The translations under genes were made by a program, and so were the position numbers. Shown one piece after another: positions 45,811 through 60,600 of a stretch of 60,600 bases of DNA. The DNA is taken from NCBI GenBank assembly GCA_049662565.1, contig JBATBW010000081.1:1-60600 (forward strand). Direction: 5' to 3'. Numbering within the stretch: the stretch's first letter is position 1; the number at the start of each line of letters is the position of its first letter. A model generated the notes under the pieces. It was not told the DNA's origin, did not search any database, and worked only from the letters and a program-made list of their open reading frames with translations. The stretch is from Erysipelotrichaceae bacterium. Its GTDB lineage: Bacteria; Bacillota_I; Bacilli_A; Erysipelotrichales; Erysipelotrichaceae.

Positions 45811-47322
45811 ATGATGAAAGAAAATACAGTAATTATTAAAACTAATAAGGGTGATATTGCAGGTCAATATCAGGATAATATGATGGTGTTTAAGGGTATT
45901 CCTTATGCAAAACCGCCAGTTAAAGAATTAAGATTTGCGCCACCGGTTGCTATGGATGTTTGGGATGGTGTTAAAGAATGTTATGAGTATGGTAATTGTT
46001 CTACTCAAGCGCCATGTATTTTAGTTAATAGTAAACCTAGTGAAGATTGTTTGTATTTAAATGTATGGGCACCTAAATTAGATCCTAATAAGAAGTATCC
46101 GGTTTATTTTTGGATCCATGGTGGTGGATATTTTAATGGCTGTGGCTCGATGGAATATTATGATGGTTCTTCTTTTGCGAATAAAGATGTAATTGTAGTG
46201 ACTATTAATTATCGTTTAGGGGCTTTAGGATTTCTTGCTTTAGAGACTTTAATGAATAAATATGGTACTACTGGTAACTGGGGTATGTTAGATCAAATCG
46301 CTGCTTTAAAGTGGGTTAATGAAAATATTGCGGCTTTTGGTGGTGATAGTAACAATATTACTATTGGTGGGGAATCGGCTGGTTCTTTCTCGGTTTCTAG
46401 TTTAGTGATGTCGCCTTTGGCTAAGGGGTTGTTCCAAAAAGCAATTATGCAAAGTGGTAACATCTTGTCGGATAATGTTTCTTTACCTTTTACTCAAGCT
46501 AAGTTAGAAGCGTCTGTGGATAATTCGGTGAAGTTTGCGCAATTATTTGGTGCGGATGATAGTGAAAAAGGGTTAGAAATATTACAAAATGTTGATGCTT
46601 ATAAGTTGTGGGAAACTGGTTTCTTCTCTTCAGATATTACTGTACCTAGCCCGATGGCTTTTTGGCATACTTTAGATGGTGTGGTATTACCGAAGAATCC
46701 TTTAGAAGCTTTAAAGAATAAGGAATACAATAAAGCTGTTTATTTGATGGGGTTCAATGAACAAGAGGGCAATGTTTTCTTGAGTGAAAACTCAACATTA
46801 GAAGGAGCTCATAATTTTATCAGTTTGGTGTTTGGTGATAAAAAAGATGGTTTAAATAAGTATTATGATGATAATGTTCGTCAAAACTTAGGTTTTGTTA
46901 GCGATGTGGTTACTTATGCTTATTTTAAGGCGGGTACGCTTTCGATGATGGATCTATTGGTTTCTAATGGAGAAAAGGTTTATGGTTATGAGTTTGGCTT
47001 GACGGCGGATGGTAATTATCCAATGAAGAATATTGGGCCTCACCATGCGGTAGATATTTTATATACTTTTGATAGTTTTGATAAGATGGGTTTAATTATG
47101 GGTCCTAATGATAAGATGATTAGTAAGCAAATGAATACGATGTGGGCTAATTTTATTACAAGTGGTAATCCTAATGTTGGTTTAGAGTTGGATCATAAAG
47201 TTGTTTGGGATACATATAATAATAATAAATTTTATTATTTTAATGAAAATATTGAATGTACTAATTTAAAGGATCGGGAAAAGATTAATGATTTTGAAAA
47301 GATGTTAAATCTTACTAAATAA
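45811..47322 (+). CDS. type-B carboxylesterase (PnbA-like)
   Basis: Oxyanion 'FWIHGGGY', nucleophile elbow 'GESAGS' and 'EDCLYLNVW' are present. The start could be 45811 or 45814. Confidence 0.9.
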   Translation: MMKENTVIIKTNKGDIAGQYQDNMMVFKGIPYAKPPVKELRFAPPVAMDVWDGVKECYEYGNCSTQAPCILVNSKPSEDCLYLNVWAPKLDPNKKYPVYFWIHGGGYFNGCGSMEYYDGSSFANKDVIVVTINYRLGALGFLALETLMNKYGTTGNWGMLDQIAALKWVNENIAAFGGDSNNITIGGESAGSFSVSSLVMSPLAKGLFQKAIMQSGNILSDNVSLPFTQAKLEASVDNSVKFAQLFGADDSEKGLEILQNVDAYKLWETGFFSSDITVPSPMAFWHTLDGVVLPKNPLEALKNKEYNKAVYLMGFNEQEGNVFLSENSTLEGAHNFISLVFGDKKDGLNKYYDDNVRQNLGFVSDVVTYAYFKAGTLSMMDLLVSNGEKVYGYEFGLTADGNYPMKNIGPHHAVDILYTFDSFDKMGLIMGPNDKMISKQMNTMWANFITSGNPNVGLELDHKVVWDTYNNNKFYYFNENIECTNLKDREKINDFEKMLNLTK

Positions 47323-47357: not shown

Positions 47358-47453
47358 ATGAAAATGTATGTAAATAATTTACATTTGTGTATATTATTTA
47401 CAATAGAATGAAAATATTGTTGTAAATATTTTGAAAAATAATGAAAATAAGTG

Positions 47454-47482
47454 TTGACACGCCGTTTTTGTCAGTATATAAT
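47454..47482 (+). promoter_or_regulatory. opp operon promoter
   Basis: TTGACA (47454-47459), a 17-nt spacer, then TATAAT (47477-47482). Confidence 0.7.
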
Positions 47483-47516
47483 TAGCACAATTATATATTT
47501 AGTGAGGAGGGATTTT

Positions 47517-49121
47517 ATGAAATATATAAAAGGGTTATTTGTAGCATTGTTATTATTGACATTGGTTGCATGTGGAAAAGGTAATGGCGGTCAGGATACT
47601 TCGACGGTTACGTTTGCCAAGGAGTTAGATATTATTTCCATGGATTCAAGTTATGCGACAGATGGTGCTTCTTTTGAAGGTATTCAGTTGACGATTGATG
47701 GTTTAATGACTATTGATGCTAATGGTAATATTATTCCGGCTCTTGCTAAAGACAAAGCGGTTGTTAGTGAAGATGGTTTGACTTATACTTATACATTGAA
47801 AGATGCGAAGTGGGATAATGGTGAACCAGTTACTGCTAATGATTTTGTTTATGCTTGGCGTCGTACGGTTTCTAGTCCGGCTGCTGAATATAATTATCTT
47901 TATACAGAAGATGGTGCTTGTTTAGCTAATGCTGCTGATATTATTAAGGGTGTTAAAGATAAGAGTGAATTGGGTATTAAGGCTGTTGATGATAAGACTA
48001 TCGTTATTACTTTATCTAAGCCTTGTGCTTATTTTGAAAGTTTGATGACTTTCCCTGTTTTCTTCCCTATTAATGAAAAGTTTGCGGAAGAAAAAGGTGA
48101 TCAATATGCATTGACTCCAGAAAATTTATTGGCATGTGGTGCTTATAAGTTATCTTCTTGGGAAAAAGGTACTAAGTATGTTGTGGTTAAGAACCCTACT
48201 TACTATGATGCTGCTGCTGTTAAGAGTGAAAAATTAGTGTTTAATGTAGTTAAAGATTTATCAAGTTCGGCTTTAGCTTTTGAAAGTGGTAATGTTGATT
48301 TTACTAAATTGAATAAGGATTTAGTTGATAAATATAAAAATTCAGAAAATTATAGTGAAGTTTTAGAAGGTTACTTATGGTACTTCCAATATAATTTGGG
48401 TAATAAATATTTAGCTAACGTTAATATTCGTAAAGCTTTATCTTTAGCTATTGATAAAGAAGATTTAGTTAAGAATGTTTTAAAAGATGGTTCAATTATT
48501 GGTAAGGGTTTTGTTCCTACTAATTTGGCTACTGGTCCAGATGGTAAAGATTACCGTGAATCAGCTCCAGTTTTCCAAGCTAATAATAAAGAAGAAGCTT
48601 TAAAGGCTTGGGAATTAGGTAAGAAAGAATTGGGTGTTACTGAAATTAAATTAAGTATGTTATTTGATAATGCTGATCCTGCAAAAACAGCTGCTGAATA
48701 TTTACAAGCTAATTTACAAACAGTGTTACCTGGTTTAACTGTTGAAATGGTTGCTCAAGAAAAGAACAATCGTATTGAAATGCAAAAGAAACGTGAGTTT
48801 GAAATTTCATTAACTCGTTGGGGTCCTGATTATGCTGATCCTACAACATATTTATATTTAATGGCTACTGGTAATTCATATAACTATGGTAATTATACTA
48901 ATGCTGATTATGATGCAAAAATGAAAGAAGCTGCTAATGCTGCAGATCCTACTGCTAGATGGAAAGCTCTTCAAGAAGCAGAAGCTATTTGTTTGAATGA
49001 TTATCCAGTTGCACCAATTTTCCAAGTTGGTGGTGCTAGTTTAATTAATAAAAATGTAACAGGTATTGAATCTCATGGCGTGGGTGTTCCTTATATTTAT
49101 AAAAATGTAGTTAAAAAATAA
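47517..49121 (+). CDS. oppA: peptide ABC transporter substrate-binding lipoprotein (family 5)
   Basis: The lipobox 'LLTLVAC' is present and the protein has SBP family-5 length and composition. I chose the ATG at 47517, which follows a GAGGAGGG RBS; the track extension from 47451 covers the promoter. Confidence 0.88.
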   Translation: MKYIKGLFVALLLLTLVACGKGNGGQDTSTVTFAKELDIISMDSSYATDGASFEGIQLTIDGLMTIDANGNIIPALAKDKAVVSEDGLTYTYTLKDAKWDNGEPVTANDFVYAWRRTVSSPAAEYNYLYTEDGACLANAADIIKGVKDKSELGIKAVDDKTIVITLSKPCAYFESLMTFPVFFPINEKFAEEKGDQYALTPENLLACGAYKLSSWEKGTKYVVVKNPTYYDAAAVKSEKLVFNVVKDLSSSALAFESGNVDFTKLNKDLVDKYKNSENYSEVLEGYLWYFQYNLGNKYLANVNIRKALSLAIDKEDLVKNVLKDGSIIGKGFVPTNLATGPDGKDYRESAPVFQANNKEEALKAWELGKKELGVTEIKLSMLFDNADPAKTAAEYLQANLQTVLPGLTVEMVAQEKNNRIEMQKKREFEISLTRWGPDYADPTTYLYLMATGNSYNYGNYTNADYDAKMKEAANAADPTARWKALQEAEAICLNDYPVAPIFQVGGASLINKNVTGIESHGVGVPYIYKNVVKK

Positions 49122-52243: not shown

Positions 52244-53171
52244 TGAACCGATTTTAGTAGTTAATGATTTAAAACAACATTTTAAAGTAAATCGTAAGTT
52301 TACTGTTAAAGCCGTCGATGGTATTTCATTTAAGATATATCCTGGGGAAACTTATGGTTTAGTTGGGGAATCAGGTAGTGGCAAGTCAACAACTGGACGT
52401 AGCATTATTCGTCTTTATGAACCAACGGCTGGAGAAATCATTTTTAATGGACAAAATATTTCTGGTAAAATGAGCAGTGCTAATATAAAGTTATTAAGGA
52501 CGAAGATGCAGATGATTTTCCAAGATCCGATGGCTTGTTTAAACCCACGTAAGAAGGTTTTAGATATCATTGGTGAAGGTTTGGATATTCACCATATGTA
52601 TAATACTAAAGAAGAAAGAGATGAAAAGGTATATTGTATTTTAGAGAAAGTAGGTTTAAGTAGAGAACATGCTTCACGTTTTCCACATCAGTTTTCTGGT
52701 GGTCAACGGCAAAGAATTGGAATTGCGCGCGCTTTGATTATGGATCCGGATTTAATTATTGCGGATGAAGCGATTTCGGCTTTGGATGTTTCAATTCAGG
52801 CGCAAGTTGTCAATTTAATGAAAGATATTCAAAAAGAAACGAATACGGCTTTTTTGTTTATTGCCCATGATTTGAGTATGGTTAAATATATTTCTGACCG
52901 TATTGGGGTATTACATTTAGGTTATTTAGTGGAAACGGGTACTACAAAAGAAATATTTGAAAATCCGATTCATCCTTATACGCGTTCTTTATTAAGTGCG
53001 ATTCCTTCGCCAAATCCTCATATTGAAAAGGTTAAAAAATCTTTGAATTATGATCCATTGGAAGAAGGAGTTGATTATACTATTGGTGTTCAACATTTAG
53101 TGGAAGGAACTCATCAAGTTTTAGCTACAGATGAAGAGTACCAACGATGGTTAAAGGAAACTAAAAAATAG
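52233..53171 (+). CDS. oppF: peptide ABC transporter ATP-binding protein
   Basis: Walker A 'GESGSGKST', signature 'FSGGQRQR' and Walker B 'IIADEAISALD' are present. Confidence 0.92.
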   Translation: MSTNEPILVVNDLKQHFKVNRKFTVKAVDGISFKIYPGETYGLVGESGSGKSTTGRSIIRLYEPTAGEIIFNGQNISGKMSSANIKLLRTKMQMIFQDPMACLNPRKKVLDIIGEGLDIHHMYNTKEERDEKVYCILEKVGLSREHASRFPHQFSGGQRQRIGIARALIMDPDLIIADEAISALDVSIQAQVVNLMKDIQKETNTAFLFIAHDLSMVKYISDRIGVLHLGYLVETGTTKEIFENPIHPYTRSLLSAIPSPNPHIEKVKKSLNYDPLEEGVDYTIGVQHLVEGTHQVLATDEEYQRWLKETKK

Positions 53172-53399: not shown

Positions 53400-53473
53400 G
53401 GTTCCTTAGCCAAGTGGTAAGGCAATAGACTGCAACTCTGTGATCATCGGTTCAAATCCGATAGGAACCTCCA
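53400..53473 (+). tRNA. tRNA-Cys (GCA)
   Basis: It folds as a cloverleaf by eye, with acceptor ggttcct/aggaacc, anticodon loop ctGCAac, T-loop ggttcaaatcc and an encoded CCA. Confidence 0.93.
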
Positions 53474-53477
53474 TTAT

Positions 53478-53565
53478 CGGGATGTGGCGAAATAGGTAGA
53501 CGCAACGGACTTAAAATCCGTTGGTAGATAATACCGTGCCGGTTCGAGTCCGGCCATCCCGACCA
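53478..53565 (+). tRNA. tRNA-Leu (TAA)
   Basis: The acceptor is cgggatg/catcccg and the anticodon loop is ctTAAaa. It has a long variable arm, T-loop ggttcgagtcc and an encoded CCA. Confidence 0.92.
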
Positions 53566-53607
53566 TTATTTAGCAACAAGCAGTCATGCTTTTTATTTTG
53601 TGAATAC

Positions 53608-53684
53608 GCGCCCATAGCTCAATAGGATAGAGTGTTTGGCTACGAACCAAAAGGTTGTGGGTTCAATTCCTGCTGGGCGCGCCA
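53608..53684 (+). tRNA. tRNA-Arg (ACG)
   Basis: The acceptor is gcgccca/tgggcgc and the anticodon loop is ctACGaa. CCA is encoded. Confidence 0.93.
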
Positions 53685-53694
53685 TTTAATTATT

Positions 53695-53771
53695 CGGGAT
53701 GTAGCACAGCTTGGTAGTGCACTTGATTTGGGATCAAGGGGTCGCAGGTTCGAATCCTGTCATCCCGACCA
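53695..53771 (+). tRNA. tRNA-Pro (TGG)
   Basis: The acceptor is cgggatg/catcccg and the anticodon loop is ttTGGga. CCA is encoded. Confidence 0.93.
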
Positions 53772-53786
53772 TTTAATTAAAAACAT

Positions 53787-53863
53787 GGCGAGGTAGCTTA
53801 GTTGGCTAGAGCGTTCGGTTCATACCCGGAAGGTCGTGGGTTCGAGTCCCACCCTCGCTACCA
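53787..53863 (+). tRNA. tRNA-Met (CAT), elongator type
   Basis: The anticodon loop is ttCATac. The body resembles the Bacillus elongator tRNA-Met ('GGTTCATACCCG') as I recall it. CCA is encoded. Confidence 0.8.
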
Positions 53864-53880
53864 TTATTACTGTAGCTTAA

Positions 53881-53957
53881 GGACCCTTAGCTCAGTTGGT
53901 CAGAGCTACCGGCTCATAACCGGTTGGTCGTAGGTTCGAGTCCTACAGGGTCCACCA
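53881..53957 (+). tRNA. tRNA with CAT anticodon, probable tRNA-Ile2 (lysidine-modified)
   Basis: The anticodon loop is ctCATaa. The acceptor 'ggaccct' and the body closely resemble B. subtilis tRNA-Ile(CAU) as I recall it. CCA is encoded. Confidence 0.7.
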
Positions 53958-53976
53958 TTTTACTAATTTAATCTTT

Positions 53977-54067
53977 GGAGGAATACCCAAGTGGTTGAAG
54001 GGTCCGGTCTTGAAAACCGGTAGGTCATGCAAGTGGCGCCTGGGTTCGAATCCCAGTTCCTCCGCCA
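53977..54067 (+). tRNA. tRNA-Ser (TGA)
   Basis: The acceptor is ggaggaa/ttcctcc and the anticodon loop is ctTGAaa. It has a long variable arm and an encoded CCA. Confidence 0.92.
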
Positions 54068-54081
54068 TTACATTTATTTAT

Positions 54082-54158
<77 letters not shown>

Positions 54159-54160
54159 AT

Positions 54161-54236
54161 GGTTCCGTAGCTCAGTCGGTAGAGCAGTGGACTGAAAATC
54201 CACGTGTCGCTGGTTCAATTCCGGCCGGAACCACCA
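54161..54236 (+). tRNA. tRNA-Phe (GAA)
   Basis: The acceptor is ggttccg/cggaacc and the anticodon loop is ctGAAaa. CCA is encoded. Confidence 0.93.
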
Positions 54237-54286: not shown

Positions 54287-54718
54287 ATGAAAATACTAGT
54301 TAGTGCATGTTTAGTTGGGGTTAATTGTAAATATAATGGTGGTAATAATTATCATCCGTATTTAGTTGACTTTCTAAAGGATCATGAGTATATTACTGTT
54401 TGTCCAGAGTTGTTGTCAGGGATGGGGTGTCCGCGTAATTGTGTGGAACAAGTTAATGAGCGTTTTATTGATCAATTTGGTAATGATGTAAGTGATATAT
54501 TTGTTAAAGGAGTTAATTTAGCTTTATCTAAATTAAAGGATGAAGACATTGATTTGGTTATTCTTCAGTCACGTAGTCCGACTTGTGGGGTTAATCAAAG
54601 ATATGATGGTAGTTTTAGCGGTTCTTTAATTAATGAGTCGGGTTTGTTTGCTAAAAGACTGAAAGAATTGGGATATAAAGTTATTGATATTAAGGATTTT
54701 AAGGTCTTAGGAAACTAA
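54287..54718 (+). CDS. DUF523-family protein (TudS/YbbK-like, Cys-rich)
   Basis: 'MKILVSACLVGVNCKYNGG' and 'SPTCG' are typical DUF523 motifs. Confidence 0.8.
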   Translation: MKILVSACLVGVNCKYNGGNNYHPYLVDFLKDHEYITVCPELLSGMGCPRNCVEQVNERFIDQFGNDVSDIFVKGVNLALSKLKDEDIDLVILQSRSPTCGVNQRYDGSFSGSLINESGLFAKRLKELGYKVIDIKDFKVLGN

Positions 54719-54728
54719 GATCTTTTTT
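54702..54728 (+). terminator. intrinsic terminator
   Basis: The hairpin aggtcttag-gaaa-ctaagatct is followed by T6. It overlaps the stop codon. Confidence 0.7.
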
Positions 54729-54840: not shown

Positions 54841-54869
54841 TTGATTTTATCGTTTGGTTATATTAGAAT
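54841..54869 (+). promoter_or_regulatory. candidate promoter of the cooC-like/HAD-family operon
   Basis: TTGATT (54841-54846), a 17-nt spacer, then TAGAAT (54864-54869). Confidence 0.5.
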
Positions 54870-54903
54870 AAAGGGGCAGACATACAAAAGGGGAGGTGTA
54901 CAT

Positions 54904-55665
54904 ATGGGAAAAGCGATTATTGCGCTTGCTGGTAAAGGTGGAGTAGGTAAGACTTCAATTTGTGCGACGATTGTAAGACAACTTGTTAAACAGTATCCAG
55001 ATAAAAGAATTTTAGCGATTGATGCTGATCCAGCGGTGGGACTTGCGACTGCTTTGAATGTGAAAGTAGAAAAAACTATTGATGACATTCGCAAGCAAAT
55101 CGTTGAGGCTGGTGAAAAGAATGATGATAAGCGTCAAGTTAAAGAACTATTAGGTGAAGCTCGTTATTTATTGTTCGATGCGATGATAGAAGAAGAGGGT
55201 TTCACTTTTATTGCGGTAGGTCGTCCGGAAGCTAAAGGTTGTTATTGCGGTATTAATTCGTATTTAAAAGAAGTGATTAGCTTGCTTAGTCAAGAATTTG
55301 ATTATGTGGTTATTGATGGCGAAGCAGGTATTGAACAGATTAATCGTCGTGTTATGGAGCAAGTAACACATTTAATTTTAGTTAGTGATCCAAGCAAAAA
55401 AGGAACTACTGTTATTCAAACGATTAAAAGAGTAGCGGATGATTTAGTGATGTATCAAGAAGTTGGAGCTATTATCAATCGTTTTAATGATGAGAGTCTG
55501 AAGGGTTTAATAAACACGGGTGGTATTAATGTTTTAAGTTATATTAGTGATGATGTTAACTTACAAATGTGTGATATCAAAGGAGAAAGTGTTTTAGATT
55601 TAACTGATAATAGTAATATTGTCAAGGGTGTAGAAGAGGCATTGATTAAACTTAACATAATATAG
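54904..55665 (+). CDS. CooC/AcsF-type MinD-fold ATPase with a CxC motif
   Basis: The deviant Walker A 'AGKGGVGKTS', 'AIDADP', 'GRPEAKGCYCGINS' (Cys-x-Cys) and 'VIDGEAGIEQ' are present. I chose the ATG at 54904, which follows a GGGGAGG RBS; the track extension from 54832 covers the promoter. Confidence 0.75.
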   Translation: MGKAIIALAGKGGVGKTSICATIVRQLVKQYPDKRILAIDADPAVGLATALNVKVEKTIDDIRKQIVEAGEKNDDKRQVKELLGEARYLLFDAMIEEEGFTFIAVGRPEAKGCYCGINSYLKEVISLLSQEFDYVVIDGEAGIEQINRRVMEQVTHLILVSDPSKKGTTVIQTIKRVADDLVMYQEVGAIINRFNDESLKGLINTGGINVLSYISDDVNLQMCDIKGESVLDLTDNSNIVKGVEEALIKLNII

Positions 55666-55678
55666 AAAGGGGATTTGT

Positions 55679-56896
55679 GTGAAAGATTTAAAACATATGA
55701 TTTATTTTGAGAGTTTGTTAGAAGATGCGAATAATGATCTTGTGCGTGAAGCGCAAAGTAATGGTCGTTTAGCATTAGGATATACATGCTTTCATATGCC
55801 AGAAGTATTATTGAATGTTGACAATTGTTTTTCGGTTCGCTTAAGAGCGCCAAATACGGGGTCAATGGAAGTCGCAACTTATTACATGTGTAATAGTAGT
55901 TGTGAGTATAGCCGAGCTTTATTAGAAAGAGCGATGGAAGGGAATTATCATTTCCTAGATGCGATGTGTGGTGTCGATTTATGTGAAGCGATGAATCGTT
56001 GTATGGAAAACATGGAGGTTTTACAAATCCAAGATCCAAAGAAAGAAAAGTTCTTTTGGACTAATACCGATGTAGCTTATGACGATGATGAAAAGAGTGT
56101 CAAACATACGGTTGAACAAATTAAGAGAAAAGTTATGGATCAATTAGCGGATCGTTATGGTGTTGATGTTAGTGATAAGGCGATACGTAAAGCGGTTGAC
56201 CAACATAATGAAGTTTGTCGGGTTTTGACAGAAATTGGGGAATTTCGTAAATTGGATAATCCGCCAATTACGGGTCATGAATTTCATATTTTAACTTTGG
56301 TTACTTATTGTTGTCCAAAGGATTTAATTATTGATAAATTAAGAGAAACTTTAGAAGAAATAAAAAATAGAGAAGTAGATAAGAAGAAACAACATCGCAT
56401 TAGAGTAGTAGTAGTGGGTAGTGAAATTGATGACCCAGATTTAATTTCTTTAATTGAAGATAATGGGGCTTTAGTTGTGGCAGATCGTTTTTGTTATGGC
56501 AGTATCCCAGGACGTCAAGAGATTATTTTAAATGATGAAGAAGATGCATTGACACAAGTTTGTCGTCGTTATCTACAAGATACCGAGTGTCCGCGTCATT
56601 GCGCACCTAAACGGGTTAAGTATCGTCATGATCATGTGGATCAATTAGTGAAAGAATATCATGCGGATGGGGTTATTTACCAACAAATGAAGTTTTGTAC
56701 TTATTGGTCATATGAAAGAACTTTAGCTTCGCATATTATGACTGAAGAATATCATATTCCGACTTTATCGATTGATAGACCATATCAAAGTCGAACTAGT
56801 GGTCAATTACGGACAAGGGTGCAAGCTTTTGTGGAAAATGTTGAAATTAAACAAATTAAAGCTAAACGTGAATTAAAGGAAAAGGAGGGGAAATAG
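55679..56896 (+). CDS. 2-hydroxyacyl-CoA dehydratase / benzoyl-CoA reductase family D-component subunit (double-cubane-protein-like), smaller subunit
   Basis: The start is a GTG after a GGGGA RBS. The protein is Cys-rich ('GYTCFHMPE', 'MCGVDLCEAMNRC', 'RFCYGS', 'KFCTYW') and has the family-typical length. Confidence 0.75.
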   Translation: MKDLKHMIYFESLLEDANNDLVREAQSNGRLALGYTCFHMPEVLLNVDNCFSVRLRAPNTGSMEVATYYMCNSSCEYSRALLERAMEGNYHFLDAMCGVDLCEAMNRCMENMEVLQIQDPKKEKFFWTNTDVAYDDDEKSVKHTVEQIKRKVMDQLADRYGVDVSDKAIRKAVDQHNEVCRVLTEIGEFRKLDNPPITGHEFHILTLVTYCCPKDLIIDKLRETLEEIKNREVDKKKQHRIRVVVVGSEIDDPDLISLIEDNGALVVADRFCYGSIPGRQEIILNDEEDALTQVCRRYLQDTECPRHCAPKRVKYRHDHVDQLVKEYHADGVIYQQMKFCTYWSYERTLASHIMTEEYHIPTLSIDRPYQSRTSGQLRTRVQAFVENVEIKQIKAKRELKEKEGK

Positions 56897-58465
56897 ATGA
56901 GTGAATATAAGCCAAAGAATTATAACTTAGGTAGTTTATATGATAATGATCATCGGGCGATGACTCATCGTGAATGGAAGGGTTTTAAAGACACGATGTA
57001 TGATTTTGGTCGTTGGTTAAAATGTTATGGGTTTATTGCTTCTCAATTAGGGGGGCATCCGATTTTAGTTATTCGGGCCTTAAAGCGTTATCGTTGGTTC
57101 TTATCTTATTTGACGGCTGCCAATATGATTGACCGTCATACGATTGGTATGCGTGGTAAGGAGCTTCGCTATATTCATGAAGAATTTTTTGCTTTAGTGC
57201 ATAATGCGACGATTAATTGTCGTAAAATATTGGTTCGTGATGAACATTTACGTCCAAATAGTAAGAAGGCGAAGGCGTTACGTGCTAATACTATCATGTT
57301 TGATGAAATGACTCCTAAGTCAATTATGTATGGTTTTCCGACTTTAGAGTGGTTAGATATTGCGATGGCGACGATTGGTATGCCTGGGGAAATAGATCAA
57401 ATTGCGAATGTATATTATATTGATAAAATTGAAGAATATGGGATGCCAGCGGACGTTTGTCCATTACCGGCTGCGGAGTGTGGTGTTGCGGTAGTTGATG
57501 ATTTTCCAATTGTTGGTTCATCTTTTATTACTAGTACGATGCCTTGTGATGGTAGTATTGGTCAAACAACTTTTATGGCTCGTTATTTGAAGGATTATCC
57601 AATTTTCCAAATAACTCCGCCTCAACGTTTTAATGAGGAAGAAGTACAAGAGTTTGCGGTTAAGAATTTACAAGAATGTATTGAGTTTATTGAAAAGAAT
57701 TATAATGTGAAATGGGATTGGGATGCTTTTTGGGAAAATTCGAAAAAGTATAATGAATCTTGTCAAGCAATTATAGATAAATGGGATATTAATACGACTG
57801 ATTATCCTCAAGTTTGTGGAGCGGCTTTATCTTTACCGCGAGAATTTGAATTCCAAGGTGCAGGTTGTATGGATGATTTCTTATATAAGACTCAACTTCG
57901 GACGACAGAAATGGCGAAAAAAGGCTATGAAGAAGATAAGAAAGCGGGTGTTAAACAATACCGTCATCGGGCGATAGTTTGGGCCTGCCCAGCGCATTAT
58001 TATACTAACTTTACTTATTGGGCGGATTCTACTTGGGGTGTTAAGACGCTAGTGGATATGGAATGTATGCTTTCTTATCATATGTATCATATTGGTGATG
58101 AAAAACAAGCGATGATAGATGTGGCGAAGAGTTATGAAAAGATGATGATGAGGTCACATACTAATGGTGGTTATGTTAACTCTTTGGATGAGTGTTGGAA
58201 GATGTGTAAGAAGTTTAATGTGGATATCGTTATTATGTATGATCATGTTAGTTGTAAGAACGTGGGATGTTTACATGGATTATATGAAGATCAAGCTAGA
58301 GAACATGGTGTTCATTTAATTTGGGTACCACATGATTTAATGGATCCAAGAACGGTTTCTCGTAAAGCGATGCGTGATGCTTTCAATAAATATATGACTA
58401 ACGTGTTCCGTGAGGAACCGATTGATCCTTCGTTTGTGGATTATGATGACCCAATTGCGTGGTAG
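56897..58465 (+). CDS. 2-hydroxyacyl-CoA dehydratase / benzoyl-CoA reductase family D-component subunit, larger subunit
   Basis: The ATG directly abuts the upstream stop. 'ADVCPLPAAECG', 'STMPCDGS', 'WACPAHYY' and 'HVSCKN' are family-like Cys motifs. Confidence 0.75.
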   Translation: MSEYKPKNYNLGSLYDNDHRAMTHREWKGFKDTMYDFGRWLKCYGFIASQLGGHPILVIRALKRYRWFLSYLTAANMIDRHTIGMRGKELRYIHEEFFALVHNATINCRKILVRDEHLRPNSKKAKALRANTIMFDEMTPKSIMYGFPTLEWLDIAMATIGMPGEIDQIANVYYIDKIEEYGMPADVCPLPAAECGVAVVDDFPIVGSSFITSTMPCDGSIGQTTFMARYLKDYPIFQITPPQRFNEEEVQEFAVKNLQECIEFIEKNYNVKWDWDAFWENSKKYNESCQAIIDKWDINTTDYPQVCGAALSLPREFEFQGAGCMDDFLYKTQLRTTEMAKKGYEEDKKAGVKQYRHRAIVWACPAHYYTNFTYWADSTWGVKTLVDMECMLSYHMYHIGDEKQAMIDVAKSYEKMMMRSHTNGGYVNSLDECWKMCKKFNVDIVIMYDHVSCKNVGCLHGLYEDQAREHGVHLIWVPHDLMDPRTVSRKAMRDAFNKYMTNVFREEPIDPSFVDYDDPIAW

Positions 58466-58482
58466 AAAAGGGAGATATAAAA

Positions 58483-59274
58483 ATGAAATATTATGGTGGA
58501 TGTGACGTTGGCTCTACTTATACAAAATGTGTAGTGGTTGACGAAAGTGGTAAAATGGTGGCGAACAGCACTATTCGTAGTAAAATAAATGCGGCGCAAA
58601 GTGCTAGTGATGCTTTAAATCAAACTATTAGTCAAATTGGTTTAAAATCATTGAATGAATTAGCTTATTTAGTTGGAACGGGTTATGGAAGAAATAAGGT
58701 GCCTCAAGCACAAGAAAATATTTCGGAAATTTCTTGTCATGCGATGGGTGTTCATATGACTAATCCTAATGTTAAGGCAATTATTGATATTGGGGGACAA
58801 GATGTTAAGGGTATTGCGATTGATACAGATGGTACAGTTCAAACTTTCGCAATGAATGATAAATGTGCAGCTGGTACTGGTCGTTTCTTTGAAGCGATGG
58901 CTAATGCTTTTGAATGTACTTTAGAAGAATTTTCTAATTTGTCTTTGACAGCGAAAAATGTTATTCCGATTACGGCGCAATGTACTGTTTTTGCGGAATC
59001 AGAAGTAATTACTTTAGTTGGTGAAGGTAAACCTCGTGATGAAATTGCGGCAGGTATTCAACAAGCGGTAGCGAAAAGATGTTTTGTTATGGCGAAAAAA
59101 GCCGGAGCTAAAGATCAAATTACTTTAACTGGTGGTTGTGCTAAGAATACGGGTTTAAAAAGAGCAATTGAAAATGTTTTAAAGATTAAAGTTGTGGAAT
59201 TAAACATTGATCCGCAATTAATGGGTGCTTTAGGGGCGGCTGAATATGCTCGTCAAAAAGGAATGGAGGTATAG
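58483..59274 (+). CDS. HgdC/BcrAD-BadFG-type ATP-dependent activase (archerase)
   Basis: 'YYGGCDVGSTYTKCVV' is an ASKHA phosphate-1 motif. 'DIGGQD', 'DKCAAGTGRFFE' (bridging-cluster Cys) and 'LTGGCAKN' are also present. Confidence 0.88.
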   Translation: MKYYGGCDVGSTYTKCVVVDESGKMVANSTIRSKINAAQSASDALNQTISQIGLKSLNELAYLVGTGYGRNKVPQAQENISEISCHAMGVHMTNPNVKAIIDIGGQDVKGIAIDTDGTVQTFAMNDKCAAGTGRFFEAMANAFECTLEEFSNLSLTAKNVIPITAQCTVFAESEVITLVGEGKPRDEIAAGIQQAVAKRCFVMAKKAGAKDQITLTGGCAKNTGLKRAIENVLKIKVVELNIDPQLMGALGAAEYARQKGMEV

Positions 59275-59277
59275 TAT

Positions 59278-59433
59278 ATGCCTTGGTATTTAATCGTTTT
59301 AATTGTGATTGTTGTTTTGTTTGTTTTATTATTTGTTGTTTATATAACTAATGCGGATTTAAAGTTAGTAGAAAAAACGTATAATTCATTATTGAAATAT
59401 CAAGAAAACAGAAAAGTCGATACTAAAATCTAA
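59278..59433 (+). CDS. 51-aa single-pass membrane peptide (not in the ORF track)
   Basis: I translated it by hand as MPWYLIVLIVIVVLFVLLFVVYITNADLKLVEKTYNSLLKYQENRKVDTKI*. A GGAGG RBS lies 8 nt upstream, and its stop overlaps the next start (TAATG). Confidence 0.6.
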   Translation: MPWYLIVLIVIVVLFVLLFVVYITNADLKLVEKTYNSLLKYQENRKVDTKI

Positions 59434-60134
59434 TGGAATTGTTTGATCATTTTATTAGTGAGATTGGTCAACTTGTAGTTGATAGAAAAATCTATAGTGC
59501 TAGTGTTTCAAATTTTAAAGGACGTAAAGGTGAATTAATTTTAAATAAGGATGCGGCTTTTACTTTAGGTAGTATGGGTAAGCATAGTGCTAACTGTACG
59601 TTATTTACTAATCAAGATATTAAAGATGAAGTAATTGTTTATGGTGAAGATTTAAATGAAATTACTAGTGACAAATCTTTTGTTCGTATTGCCATAATTC
59701 AAACATCAAATATTGAAGAACATGGTGAACAAGCAGCTTATAACATTATGGAAAACATAAGTCTACGGAAGTATGATGTTTTTGTGGATGGTTATATGGT
59801 GCGAACATCAATGGATTTAAAGGAAGATGTTAGAGTTAGTAAAGATGCGATAAAAAAGGGTCTTAAATTTAAAGATGTTGGTAATGAATATATTGAAATA
59901 TATAAACAAAATAAATATGTAAAGGGTTGTACGATTATTTTTATTACTAGTGATGACGCTAATTATCAAAGGTTAGAAGAAATTAGTTATAAGGCGGAAC
60001 AAACTTATAAAGCATTAAATCATTTATTAAAAGATTTAAAGATGGATTGTCATGCCTGTGGTTGGAAGAGTGTTTGCGACGAAGTAGAAGGTATGAAAGA
60101 AATGCATAGTGCATTATTAAAGAAGGAGATATAA
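59433..60134 (+). CDS. protein resembling the central domain of acetyl-CoA synthase (AcsB/CdhC-like fragment) with a C-terminal CxxCx5C
   Basis: 'VRVSKDAIKKGLKFKDVGNEYI', 'CTIIFITSDDANYQRL' and 'KDEVIVYGEDLNEI' parallel the Moorella AcsB central domain as I recall it. The protein ends with 'CHACGWKSVC'. Confidence 0.55.
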   Translation: MELFDHFISEIGQLVVDRKIYSASVSNFKGRKGELILNKDAAFTLGSMGKHSANCTLFTNQDIKDEVIVYGEDLNEITSDKSFVRIAIIQTSNIEEHGEQAAYNIMENISLRKYDVFVDGYMVRTSMDLKEDVRVSKDAIKKGLKFKDVGNEYIEIYKQNKYVKGCTIIFITSDDANYQRLEEISYKAEQTYKALNHLLKDLKMDCHACGWKSVCDEVEGMKEMHSALLKKEI

Positions 60135-60600
60135 TGGCCGAATTTAAAACAGATAAACAAATTCAAGATTTGTGTGATAGTTTTGGTGATTGGTTTAAGG
60201 ATAAAAGAGCGAATTGTGCGCATAATGCAGCCCAAATGACTAACGATTTATATCCTTATACTTCTATTTTTTCACCAATTAGAATTAATCGGATGGTTGT
60301 GAAAAATCGGGTGGTAATGGCACCGATGGGTAATCTTATGATGTGTGAAGAACATGGTCGTCCAAATGAAAAAATGATTCAATACTTCCTCGCAAGAGCT
60401 AAAGGTGGGGTTGGATTAATTACTAGTGGTTTAGTACCAATTAGTGATGGTATTGATAATACGGTTCAAGAACCAAATAAGAAAGTGATGATGCCTAGAA
60501 TCTCACCGGAAAGAACGTTGATGTCGGGGTGGCGTGATTTAGCACAAGGGTGTCATGCTTATGGTAGTCGTTTCTTTATTCAGTTTACACCGGGTTTAGG
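60134..60600 (+). CDS. Old-Yellow-Enzyme family NADH:flavin oxidoreductase / 2-enoate reductase-like protein, 5' part (continues beyond window)
   Basis: I translated it by hand. It reads 'IFSPIRINRMVVKNRVVMAPMGN', 'FLARAKGGVGLITSGL' and 'LAQGCHAYGSRFFIQFTPG'. The ATG overlaps the upstream stop (TAATG), and the frame is open to nt 60600. Confidence 0.8.
   Translation, partial: MAEFKTDKQIQDLCDSFGDWFKDKRANCAHNAAQMTNDLYPYTSIFSPIRINRMVVKNRVVMAPMGNLMMCEEHGRPNEKMIQYFLARAKGGVGLITSGLVPISDGIDNTVQEPNKKVMMPRISPERTLMSGWRDLAQGCHAYGSRFFIQFTPGL

Follow-up and report, generated by a model that had tools for sequence, protein, structure and literature searches.

A conserved gut-bacterial gene cassette linking a benzoyl-CoA reductase-type radical enzyme with a CooC-type ATPase and a truncated acetyl-CoA synthase-like protein

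Benzoyl-CoA reductases (BCR), 2-hydroxyacyl-CoA dehydratases (HAD) and double-cubane cluster proteins (DCCP) carry out the most reducing biological chemistry known outside nitrogenase, and to our knowledge all characterized members are pure iron–sulfur (or flavin) systems without dedicated maturation factors. Acetyl-CoA synthase (ACS) and CooC are usually assigned to CO/acetyl-CoA metabolism. Here we analyze a 60,600-nt stretch of an Erysipelotrichaceae genome (contig JBATBW010000081.1; hereafter, the window, to whose positions all coordinates without a locus number refer), at the 3' end of which a cassette of seven genes joins these two worlds: a CooC-type ATPase, two HGD-D family subunits (N and O), an activase, a membrane micro-protein, a truncated ACS-like protein and a flavoenzyme whose gene is cut by the window edge (Table 1). 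We propose that the operon on balance encodes an ATP-driven, very-low-potential radical enzyme of the BCR/HAD/DCCP superfamily and, with it, a dedicated accessory metalloprotein that is membrane-tethered and probably nickel-related. As far as our literature searches reach, such a link between a BCR-type enzyme and CooC-like, ACS-like, CooT and micro-protein genes has not been described before; no paper was found that describes the cassette or connects HAD, BCR or DCCP enzymes with CooC or ACS-like proteins. Three candidate precedents were set aside: a paper on isoprene reductase concerns HypA/HypB and an unrelated oxidoreductase, a study of carbon monoxide dehydrogenase (CODH) gene contexts (PMC13056359) makes no mention of dehydratases or activases, and an SAO/double-cubane preprint concerns a different locus.

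The class I BCR BzdNOPQ (PDB 8S02; PMC11971306) is, like the enzyme predicted here, a heterodimer of two HGD-D paralogues, with a six-cysteine [8Fe-9S] site in the N-type subunit, a three-cysteine [4Fe-4S] site in the O-type subunit and an ATP-driven electron injector of the ASKHA type. It has two different ATPase subunits (BzdP/Q, or BcrA/D), whereas the cassette has a single activase gene, lacks ferredoxin and ring-hydrolysis genes, and adds the CooC-like, ACS-like and micro-protein genes. DCCP with DCCP-R (PDB 6ENO, 7YYL; PMC7317905) and Escherichia coli YjiML share the seven-cysteine double-cubane motif found in the cassette N subunit, and they too are self-contained, having their own archerase and no CoA-activating enzyme. 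DCCP, however, is a homodimer of one protein, whereas the cassette encodes two diverged paralogues. We know of no DCCP locus that includes CooC-like, ACS-like or old yellow enzyme (OYE) genes. The (R)-2-hydroxyacyl-CoA dehydratases HadBC/HadI, HgdAB/HgdC and FldBC/FldI (PDB 3O3M) pair one homodimeric activator with an alpha/beta heterodimer of HGD-D subunits, as the cassette appears to do. By analogy, the cassette enzyme would operate as a cross between BzdNO and DCCP that has a single activator in the style of HAD systems.

Both large cysteine-rich proteins match the HGD-D family (PF06050) far above its gathering cut-off of 28.4 (302 bits for the N subunit and 122.9 bits for the O subunit), in agreement with a first-pass annotation, made from the sequence alone, that had placed them in the HAD/BCR D-component family. 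The best NCBIfam match of the N subunit was the double-cubane model NF040772 (1.9e-42, 145.7 bits, below the cut-off of 350, against which the O subunit scored 38.4 bits), and its scores also lay far under the cut-offs of the equivalog models BzdN (93.3 versus 453.8), BcrC (58.6 versus 421) and HadC (96.4 versus 700). In a sequence search of the PDB, its closest solved relatives were BzdN (5e-25), HadC and DCCP. Six of its cysteines (C37, C75, C102, C272, C304 and C340), all 100% conserved and accompanied by a 93% conserved C50, align with cysteines of BzdN and DCCP; because they match the [8Fe-9S] double-cubane ligand pattern described for those two proteins (PMC7317905, PMC11971306), we read the N subunit as a double-cubane type. 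Two further invariant cysteines, C180 and C212, are family-specific and have no counterpart in BzdN.

A direct phmmer search of the PDB with the O subunit gave no match; a profile of its family retrieved DCCP, BzdO and MbdO. Three conserved cysteines (C188, C217 and C453) align with the BzdO cysteines that bind the catalytic [4Fe-4S] cluster (named in PMC11971306), and the protein carries an extra invariant C364. Its AlphaFold2 model (predicted local distance difference test score, pLDDT, 85) matched the folds of BzdO, HadB, DCCP and MbdO almost equally well (E ~1e-11, 11–15% identity), with BzdO the best match and catalytic chains ranking above partner chains. A conserved N-terminal helical extension of ~100 aa, in which R25, E26, G29, D32 and T33 are among the invariant residues and W27 is nearly invariant, has no equivalent in BzdO or the other solved relatives. 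The O subunit also differs from BzdO after its second cluster cysteine, where the aligned sequences read C217-D-G-S, as in DCCP; in BzdO this region holds His131, three residues after Cys128, which forms an acid–base pair with Glu65 at the aqua-[4Fe-4S] cluster (PMC11971306). Since the O subunit is about equally distant from the catalytic subunits of BCR, HAD and DCCP, reduction and dehydration are not distinguishable on this basis.

The fourth gene had been called an HgdC/BcrAD-type activase, and this assignment held: its product passes TIGR00241 (215 bits, cut-off 125), and C128 and C167 are 100% conserved. We take these two cysteines, after HgdC, to be ligands of a [4Fe-4S] cluster that bridges the dimer with two cysteines from each monomer. 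One activase gene per cassette was found in the window and in the full loci inspected. By homology, the N and O subunits and the activase are established as an archerase-driven two-subunit HGD-D enzyme with one BzdN/DCCP-type and one BzdO/HadB-type subunit, a composition that would make it an ATP-coupled, very-low-potential electron generator for radical reduction or dehydration.

Could this be an ordinary 2-hydroxyacyl-CoA dehydratase operon of Stickland-type fermentation, accompanied by an enoate reductase and unrelated neighbors? A single homodimer-type activase gene is what HAD systems have, the closest solved relatives include HadC and HadB (which are also close structural relatives of the N and O subunits, respectively), and in one related locus the next gene after the cassette is of the acetyl-CoA hydrolase/transferase family, PF13336 (L016, 6076–7419; L-numbers denote distinct loci that carry relatives of the ACS-like gene or of cassette parts), the sole directly adjacent case. 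The equivalog scores, however, are far too low for HadC, the N subunit has the six-cysteine double-cubane motif in place of the three-cysteine site of a beta subunit, and the supposed neighbors are conserved parts of the cassette. The first-pass annotation had noted that CoA-transferase and acyl-CoA dehydrogenase genes were missing from the operon; the closest full loci lack them as well, together with electron-transfer flavoprotein (ETF) genes, and no standard fld/hgd/lcd operon follows downstream, as the operon of the closest relatives ends after the flavoenzyme gene. We therefore consider an ordinary dehydratase operon largely refuted and highly improbable.

Two other possible pathway links were rejected. 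CoA-transferase genes lie 1.7–4 kb downstream of the cassette in another clade (L036, L040, L082 and ~10 other loci), probably as mere shared synteny, because they are interleaved with sporulation and housekeeping genes. No common downstream pathway partner emerged, the genes found there being heterogeneous (glycosyltransferase, methyltransferase, GH95, MFS transporter, ODP/flavodoxin and others).

The ACS-like protein is related to CdhC/AcsB by both sequence profile and fold. It scored 29.8 bits against Pfam CdhC (gathering cut-off 24) and did not reach the TIGR00316 equivalog (35.8 versus a cut-off of 356), a profile built from 25 homologues matched residues 333–509 of AcsB (1e-5), and all 22 Foldseek matches of its AlphaFold2 model (pLDDT 83.5) with E <= 0.001 were ACS/CdhC chains, with TM-scores of 0.45–0.58 on the query. 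The first-pass annotation had likened it to the middle domain of ACS only. The A2 domain was confirmed, but the protein also has the first cubane-binding cysteine motif of the C-terminal domain: its C-terminus reads D-C206-x2-C209-x2-K-x2-C215-DEVEG-x4-H225 (Cx2Cx5Cx9H), with C206, C209, C215 and H225 invariant in 86 sequences. In ACS, the cubane of the A-cluster is bound by C506, C509, C518 and C528 (Cx2Cx8Cx9C, confirmed in the 1mjg sequence); the first two cysteines of the motif align with C506 and C509 in the hidden Markov model (HMM) alignment, whereas the third cysteine and the histidine are paired with C518 and C528 by spacing alone. The Cys-Gly-Cys nickel site and the remainder of the A3 domain are absent from the ACS-like protein, which ends ~25 residues past the motif. 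In ACS, Cys595-Gly-Cys597 is the site that binds both nickels, so a protein lacking it cannot carry a complete A-cluster alone, and the loss argues against a full A-cluster here.

ACS-like proteins form a coherent family of stand-alone proteins of ~240 aa (215 representatives at 50% identity, E <= 1e-30); the exact sequence of the window protein is not on record in public assemblies. Databases label them 'hypothetical protein' or 'CO dehydrogenase/acetyl-CoA synthase beta subunit', the latter being misleading.

The first gene matches CbiA/MinD/ArsA-type models, and neither HMM library returned a CooC-specific model for it. Among all PDB sequences its product is most similar to Carboxydothermus hydrogenoformans CooC1 (3kje, 5e-14), and the CxC motifs of the two align; ArsA comes next (4e-8). 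Besides the deviant Walker A motif GKGGVGKTS it has a G-C113-Y-C115 motif that is invariant among 43 homologues, with both cysteines 100% conserved. The gene is thus no ordinary ParA/MinD without a conserved CxC, and its earlier designation as a CooC/AcsF-type ATPase is well supported. The MinD fold, the deviant Walker A, the CxC and a position beside a homologue of the known client ACS are shared with CooC/AcsF systems; unlike in those systems, the putative client is an ACS A2 domain with a cubane motif, and the partners are BCR-like enzymes. No CODH or full ACS client adjoins the CooC-like gene in the loci examined, only the truncated ACS-like protein.

These two proteins might also work without nickel, the ATPase as an Fe-S carrier or insertase resembling Mrp/NBP35 and the ACS-like protein as a [4Fe-4S] electron-transfer partner or CoA-binding adaptor feeding the archerase or the N/O pair. 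The N-terminus of the ATPase matches NUBPL/Mrp-type and NifH-type families weakly, and the ACS-like motif alone suffices for a cubane. On the other side, CooC1 is a stronger match than every other solved MinD-fold protein by some six orders of magnitude or more, and the ATPase has the CxC of CooC where Mrp/NBP35 have CxxC. The gene neighborhoods of other loci bear on the same question. CooT (PF10133, above cut-off) adjoins the ACS-like gene in four distinct contexts: CooC-like, ACS-like and CooT genes beside Feo, CDF and DtxR genes (L088/89); activase, micro-protein, ACS-like, histidine-rich, CooT and OYE genes (L071/L075); CooC-like, ACS-like, histidine-rich, CooT, N and O genes (L066); and a full cassette followed by histidine-rich (DUF8180), CooT and OYE genes (L094/95, as arranged in L094). 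Most cassettes, the window included, have no CooT or histidine-rich gene, which suits a function without nickel, but the recurrence of CooT in independent loci speaks against it, and overall we regard a nickel-free system as rather unlikely.

Genes for the histidine-rich proteins (74–106 aa, as in YHHDHHG...AHMLDHNRHHEEE) lie between the ACS-like and CooT genes (L066, 2070–2294; L071, 1879–2157; L075, 1645–1866; L094, 9939–10259). Searches against Pfam, NCBIfam and PDB sequences linked these proteins neither to CooJ nor to any other family or solved structure; one of them (L094) has a precomputed DUF8180 label. The co-occurrence of a CooC-type ATPase with CooT and a histidine-rich protein in some loci recalls the CooCTJ nickel-insertion set of Rhodospirillum rubrum CODH (CooCTJ is summarized in PMC13056359). 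No CODH, corrinoid protein or methyltransferase was found in the window region or the loci examined. The first-pass suggestion of a 'possibly heterometal' cluster gains circumstantial support from these CooT and histidine-rich neighbors in other loci.

In the 10 kb upstream of the stand-alone trio of CooC-like, ACS-like and CooT genes (L088, 9210–10936; L089, 7291–9017), neither an HGD-D nor an activase gene is present, and the neighbors of the trio include FeoA/FeoB, CDF cation efflux, a DtxR-type repressor, Rrf2, MarR and glutathione peroxidase genes.

Because the CooC-like/ACS-like pair occurs even without the N and O genes and attracts CooT and histidine-rich proteins, we infer that the ACS-like protein is a client of the CooC-type ATPase; as such a client, with CooT and a histidine-rich protein beside it in other genomes, it would probably receive nickel or another metal. 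A bolder step would give the nickel a catalytic role: the ACS-like protein would carry an A-cluster-like, nickel-bridged cubane that is super-reduced by the archerase/double-cubane chain for organometallic chemistry, with extra thiolates supplied in trans by N/O, by a second ACS-like copy or by the CooC-like CxC. The cubane-ligand motif is kept, including the cysteine equivalent to the nickel-bridging C509, the CooC-like, CooT and histidine-rich neighbors recreate a CooCTJ-type set around the ACS-like gene, and the family-specific invariant cysteines C180 and C212 of the N subunit and C364 of the O subunit, none of which is present in BzdN, have no assigned role. Against this stand the missing Cys-Gly-Cys and rest of the A3 domain, the status of the ACS-like protein as the least conserved cassette member, and the complete BzdO/HadB-type catalytic site that the O subunit already has. 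A catalytic nickel of this kind seems to us improbable, and equally so the claim that the cassette is the first nickel-dependent enzyme of the BCR/HAD/DCCP type, in which a CooC-loaded, membrane-tethered ACS fragment forms a Ni-[4Fe-4S] center that acts on the substrate.

Membrane tethering is suggested by the micro-protein. The first-pass annotation had listed an unannotated 51-aa peptide with a single transmembrane segment, and its presence and position proved to be conserved: each of the 62 locus entries with both an activase and an ACS-like gene has the micro-protein between the two, and its size is 51–61 aa across loci. It consists of one strongly hydrophobic helix and a basic tail, with F19, Y22, N25, D27, K29 and Y35 invariant after the helix. 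Its stop codon overlaps the start of the ACS-like gene in the window, and this overlap is frequent in other loci. A profile search returned at least 3964 clusters; the 120 listed were 51–95 aa long, and none had a Pfam domain.

The part of the seventh gene that lies within the window encodes, as had been proposed, an OYE-type flavoprotein. Full-length homologues (760 aa) are 76–84% identical to it over the part seen, and the homologues as a whole (683–762 aa) have an Oxidored_FMN domain followed by a C-terminal Pyr_redox_2 domain. Their closest solved relatives are FadH (1ps9, 6e-56), a 2,4-dienoyl-CoA reductase, and then NCR (6qkg, 3e-47), a 2-naphthoyl-CoA reductase, so that the kin of the flavoenzyme are CoA-thioester dienoyl/aryl reductases; scores for BaiCD (294–348 versus 825) and for the long form of BilR (300–335 versus 750) were below the equivalog cut-offs. 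At least four groups of loci (the window clade, L007, L071/L094 and L092) have a FadH/NCR-type flavoenzyme gene after the ACS-like gene, and the flavoenzyme is a variable add-on outside the invariant core. In anaerobic naphthalene degradation, OYE-type 2-naphthoyl-CoA reductases act together with an ATP-dependent BCR-like tetrahydronaphthoyl-CoA reductase, a pathway that the cassette may resemble in logic. In both, an Fe-S flavoenzyme of the FadH/NCR type (NCR, PDB 6QKG) is paired with an ATP-dependent reductase of the BCR type, but the naphthalene pathway belongs to other organisms and another habitat, and the cassette has no CoA ligase or carboxylase context. By its sequences, the system belongs to the BCR, HAD, DCCP, ACS, BaiCD and BilR superfamilies but fails the equivalog test of each.

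Relatives of the ACS-like gene were found in 532 stretches of species-representative genomes. The best 80 of these 532 came from uncultured Oscillospiraceae, Acutalibacteraceae, Lachnospiraceae, Mogibacterium and Acholeplasmatales/Mollicutes-type metagenome-assembled genomes (Bacillota) in the guts of humans (Hadza), ruminants, horses, rabbits and chickens. Among the 48 loci with enough upstream sequence to judge, 34 had the order CooC-like, N, O, activase, micro-protein, ACS-like, three had the same cassette without the CooC-like gene, seven had the CooC-like/ACS-like pair alone and four had a solitary ACS-like gene. In a further 37 of the 85 distinct loci (L022–L085), the contig breaks off inside the activase gene or shortly ahead of it, a few hundred bases before the start of the ACS-like gene. 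With a product that is 78–89% identical across all cassettes, the activase gene probably acts as an assembly-breaking repeat shared by paralogous or co-occurring cassettes. The same cassette came back when reverse look-ups began with homologues of the O subunit (44% and 66% identity) or of the micro-protein. Gene order, which the first-pass annotation had proposed to compare across related genomes, is thus kept in dozens of genomes, and the gene set also survives permutation. O-subunit clusters at 90% identity hold up to 6468 member sequences in one cluster.

Several loci depart from this order while keeping the parts together. In L096 (7397–12674, on a 400-kb scaffold) the order is CooC-like, activase, micro-protein, ACS-like, N, O, with the identity of the ACS-like gene confirmed by hhalign (E 3e-60). 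A variant without the activase (L092, 6027–12568; L093, 5018–11559) runs CooC-like, N, O, micro-protein, ACS-like and a 688-aa OYE. Two N–O pairs stand in tandem in L066 (579–10696), L072 (1862–10696) and L081 (3–10729), and L066 has two CooC-like and two ACS-like genes with one activase. Because the linkage survives these rearrangements and duplications, the ACS-like protein appears to work specifically with N/O.

Genes near some of these variants were also recorded. A ZIP-family metal permease gene lies ~2 kb upstream of the permuted cassette in L096, and genes for MatE and MFS transporters and for a pyridoxamine-oxidase-like protein flank the activase-less cassettes of L092/L093. In L090 (5366–5882) and L091 (5682–6198) the ACS-like gene is followed by genes for a 74-aa hydrophobic, probably membrane, protein and YbjQ_1 (PF01906); this variant is highly abundant, its O-subunit cluster holding 938 member sequences. 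TetR regulators precede five cassettes.

Within the clade closest to the window, identity to the window proteins is ~80–89% for the activase, 71–82% for N/O, 64–72% for the CooC-like ATPase, 50–65% for the micro-protein and 42–50% for the ACS-like protein. Comparison of window positions 54904–60600 with L001, L006, L007, L009, L014 and L017–L019 found close relatives, with ~80% identical cassette proteins, in genomes of 30–58% G+C that belong to different classes and have unrelated flanks. This distribution suggests that the cassette moves horizontally as a unit and indicates recent horizontal transfer of the whole cassette, as judged from the sequences compared. Neither the ACS-like protein nor the O subunit had a plasmid match in PLSDB.

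In the mechanism that we propose, homology to solved systems suggests that the homodimeric archerase would take an electron from ferredoxin or flavodoxin and, upon ATP hydrolysis, inject it into the [8Fe-9S] double cubane of the N subunit, from which it would pass to the three-cysteine [4Fe-4S] cluster, with its open iron site, in the O subunit. This cluster would reduce the substrate or dehydrate it via a ketyl, and in the window clade the FadH/NCR-type Fe-S flavoenzyme could then reduce a conjugated C=C bond of the product. Gene context suggests that the truncated ACS-like protein binds a cubane via Cx2Cx5Cx9H, that as a client of the CooC-type ATPase it probably receives nickel or another metal, and that the co-translated micro-protein holds it at the inner face of the membrane, where it may serve N/O either as a scaffold for assembly or as an auxiliary redox or metal-center partner. 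From the FadH/NCR-like partner, the BzdN-like subunit and the herbivore/fiber-rich gut habitat, we speculate that the substrate is a carboxyl- or thioester-activated, unsaturated or aromatic plant-derived acid.

Several observations weigh against this proposal of a radical enzyme with a nickel-related accessory protein. In the absence of Cys-Gly-Cys, the ACS-like sequence does not imply nickel binding, and the window, like most cassettes, lacks the CooT and histidine-rich genes on which a link to nickel would draw. The CooC-like gene is absent beside three cassettes, and the activase is absent from one cassette variant. With the O subunit equidistant from BCR, HAD and DCCP enzymes, the clues to the substrate come from the flavoenzyme and the one adjacent CoA-transferase gene. 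Finally, the ACS-like protein is the fastest-evolving member of the cassette (42–50% identity in the closest clade versus 71–89% for N/O and the activase); a scaffold or chaperone would therefore fit at least as well as a catalytic partner, and we favor an auxiliary role.

The layout of the seven plus-strand genes agrees with the first description, including the gaps of 13, 0, 17 and 3 nt and the two TAATG overlaps (59431–59435 and 60132–60136), which are the stop and start codons of neighboring ORFs (open reading frames). The candidate promoter upstream fared less well: promoter-like sites with 9/12 matches are no more frequent in the region than in shuffled sequence (29 found versus 29.8 expected), and it is its position alone, in the sole sizeable intergenic gap and after a terminator-like hairpin, that makes the site plausible. 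A ribosome-binding site (GGAGG) precedes the ATG of the ATPase gene at 54904. The TudS-like gene upstream is a separate transcription unit and is not kept beside the cassette elsewhere. Directly upstream of it and the cassette lies a tight cluster of nine tRNA genes (53400–54236; Cys, Leu, Arg, Pro, Met, Met, Ser, Met, Phe), with three copies of tRNA-Met(CAT). The remaining genes of the window are housekeeping genes such as those for UvrAB, Pgk, SHMT, LeuRS, a Mur ligase, Hsp90 and an Opp-type transporter. The last of these is a complete ABC transporter of the peptide/nickel family (SBP_bac_5 binding protein at 47451–49121, two permease-sized ORFs and two ATPases ending at 53171), preceded by a carboxylesterase-family gene (45811–47322).

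Table 1 Features of the cassette and its 5' boundary in the window.
Feature	Position	Strand	Basis
CooC-type MinD-fold ATPase, 253 aa	54904..55665	+	Pfam/NCBIfam, PDB search, conservation
HGD-D N-type subunit, 405 aa	55679..56896	+	HGD-D 1e-89; PDB search; Cys conservation
HGD-D O-type catalytic-subunit homologue, 522 aa	56897..58465	+	HGD-D 3e-35; profile versus PDB; AlphaFold2 fold search
Archerase-type activase (ASKHA ATPase), single, 263 aa	58483..59274	+	BcrAD_BadFG 1e-58; TIGR00241
Single-pass membrane micro-protein, 51 aa	59278..59433	+	ORF list; found across loci
ACS-like protein, 233 aa	59433..60134	+	CdhC HMM, family profile, AlphaFold2/Foldseek, Cys motif
OYE/FadH-type flavoenzyme, N-terminal 155 aa, leaves window	60134..60600	+	Oxidored_FMN
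Candidate sigma-70-type promoter, TTGATT-17-TAGAAT	54841..54869	+	9/12 consensus match
Terminator-like hairpin	54701..54724	+	10-bp stem then T run; closes TudS-like gene, 5' boundary of unit
TudS/DUF523 (2-thiouracil-desulfurase family), 143 aa	54287-54718		Own terminator-like hairpin

A conserved, horizontally mobile cassette that joins the BCR-type world with that of ACS and CooC is unexpected, and it adds an unannotated micro-protein family with thousands of variants. If the nickel-dependent reading were true, ACS-type organometallic chemistry would take place outside the Wood-Ljungdahl pathway, in abundant gut bacteria. The cassette makes testable whether BCR-type enzymes use nickel, how double cubanes or other unusual clusters are assembled, and which gut substrates DCCP-like enzymes act on.

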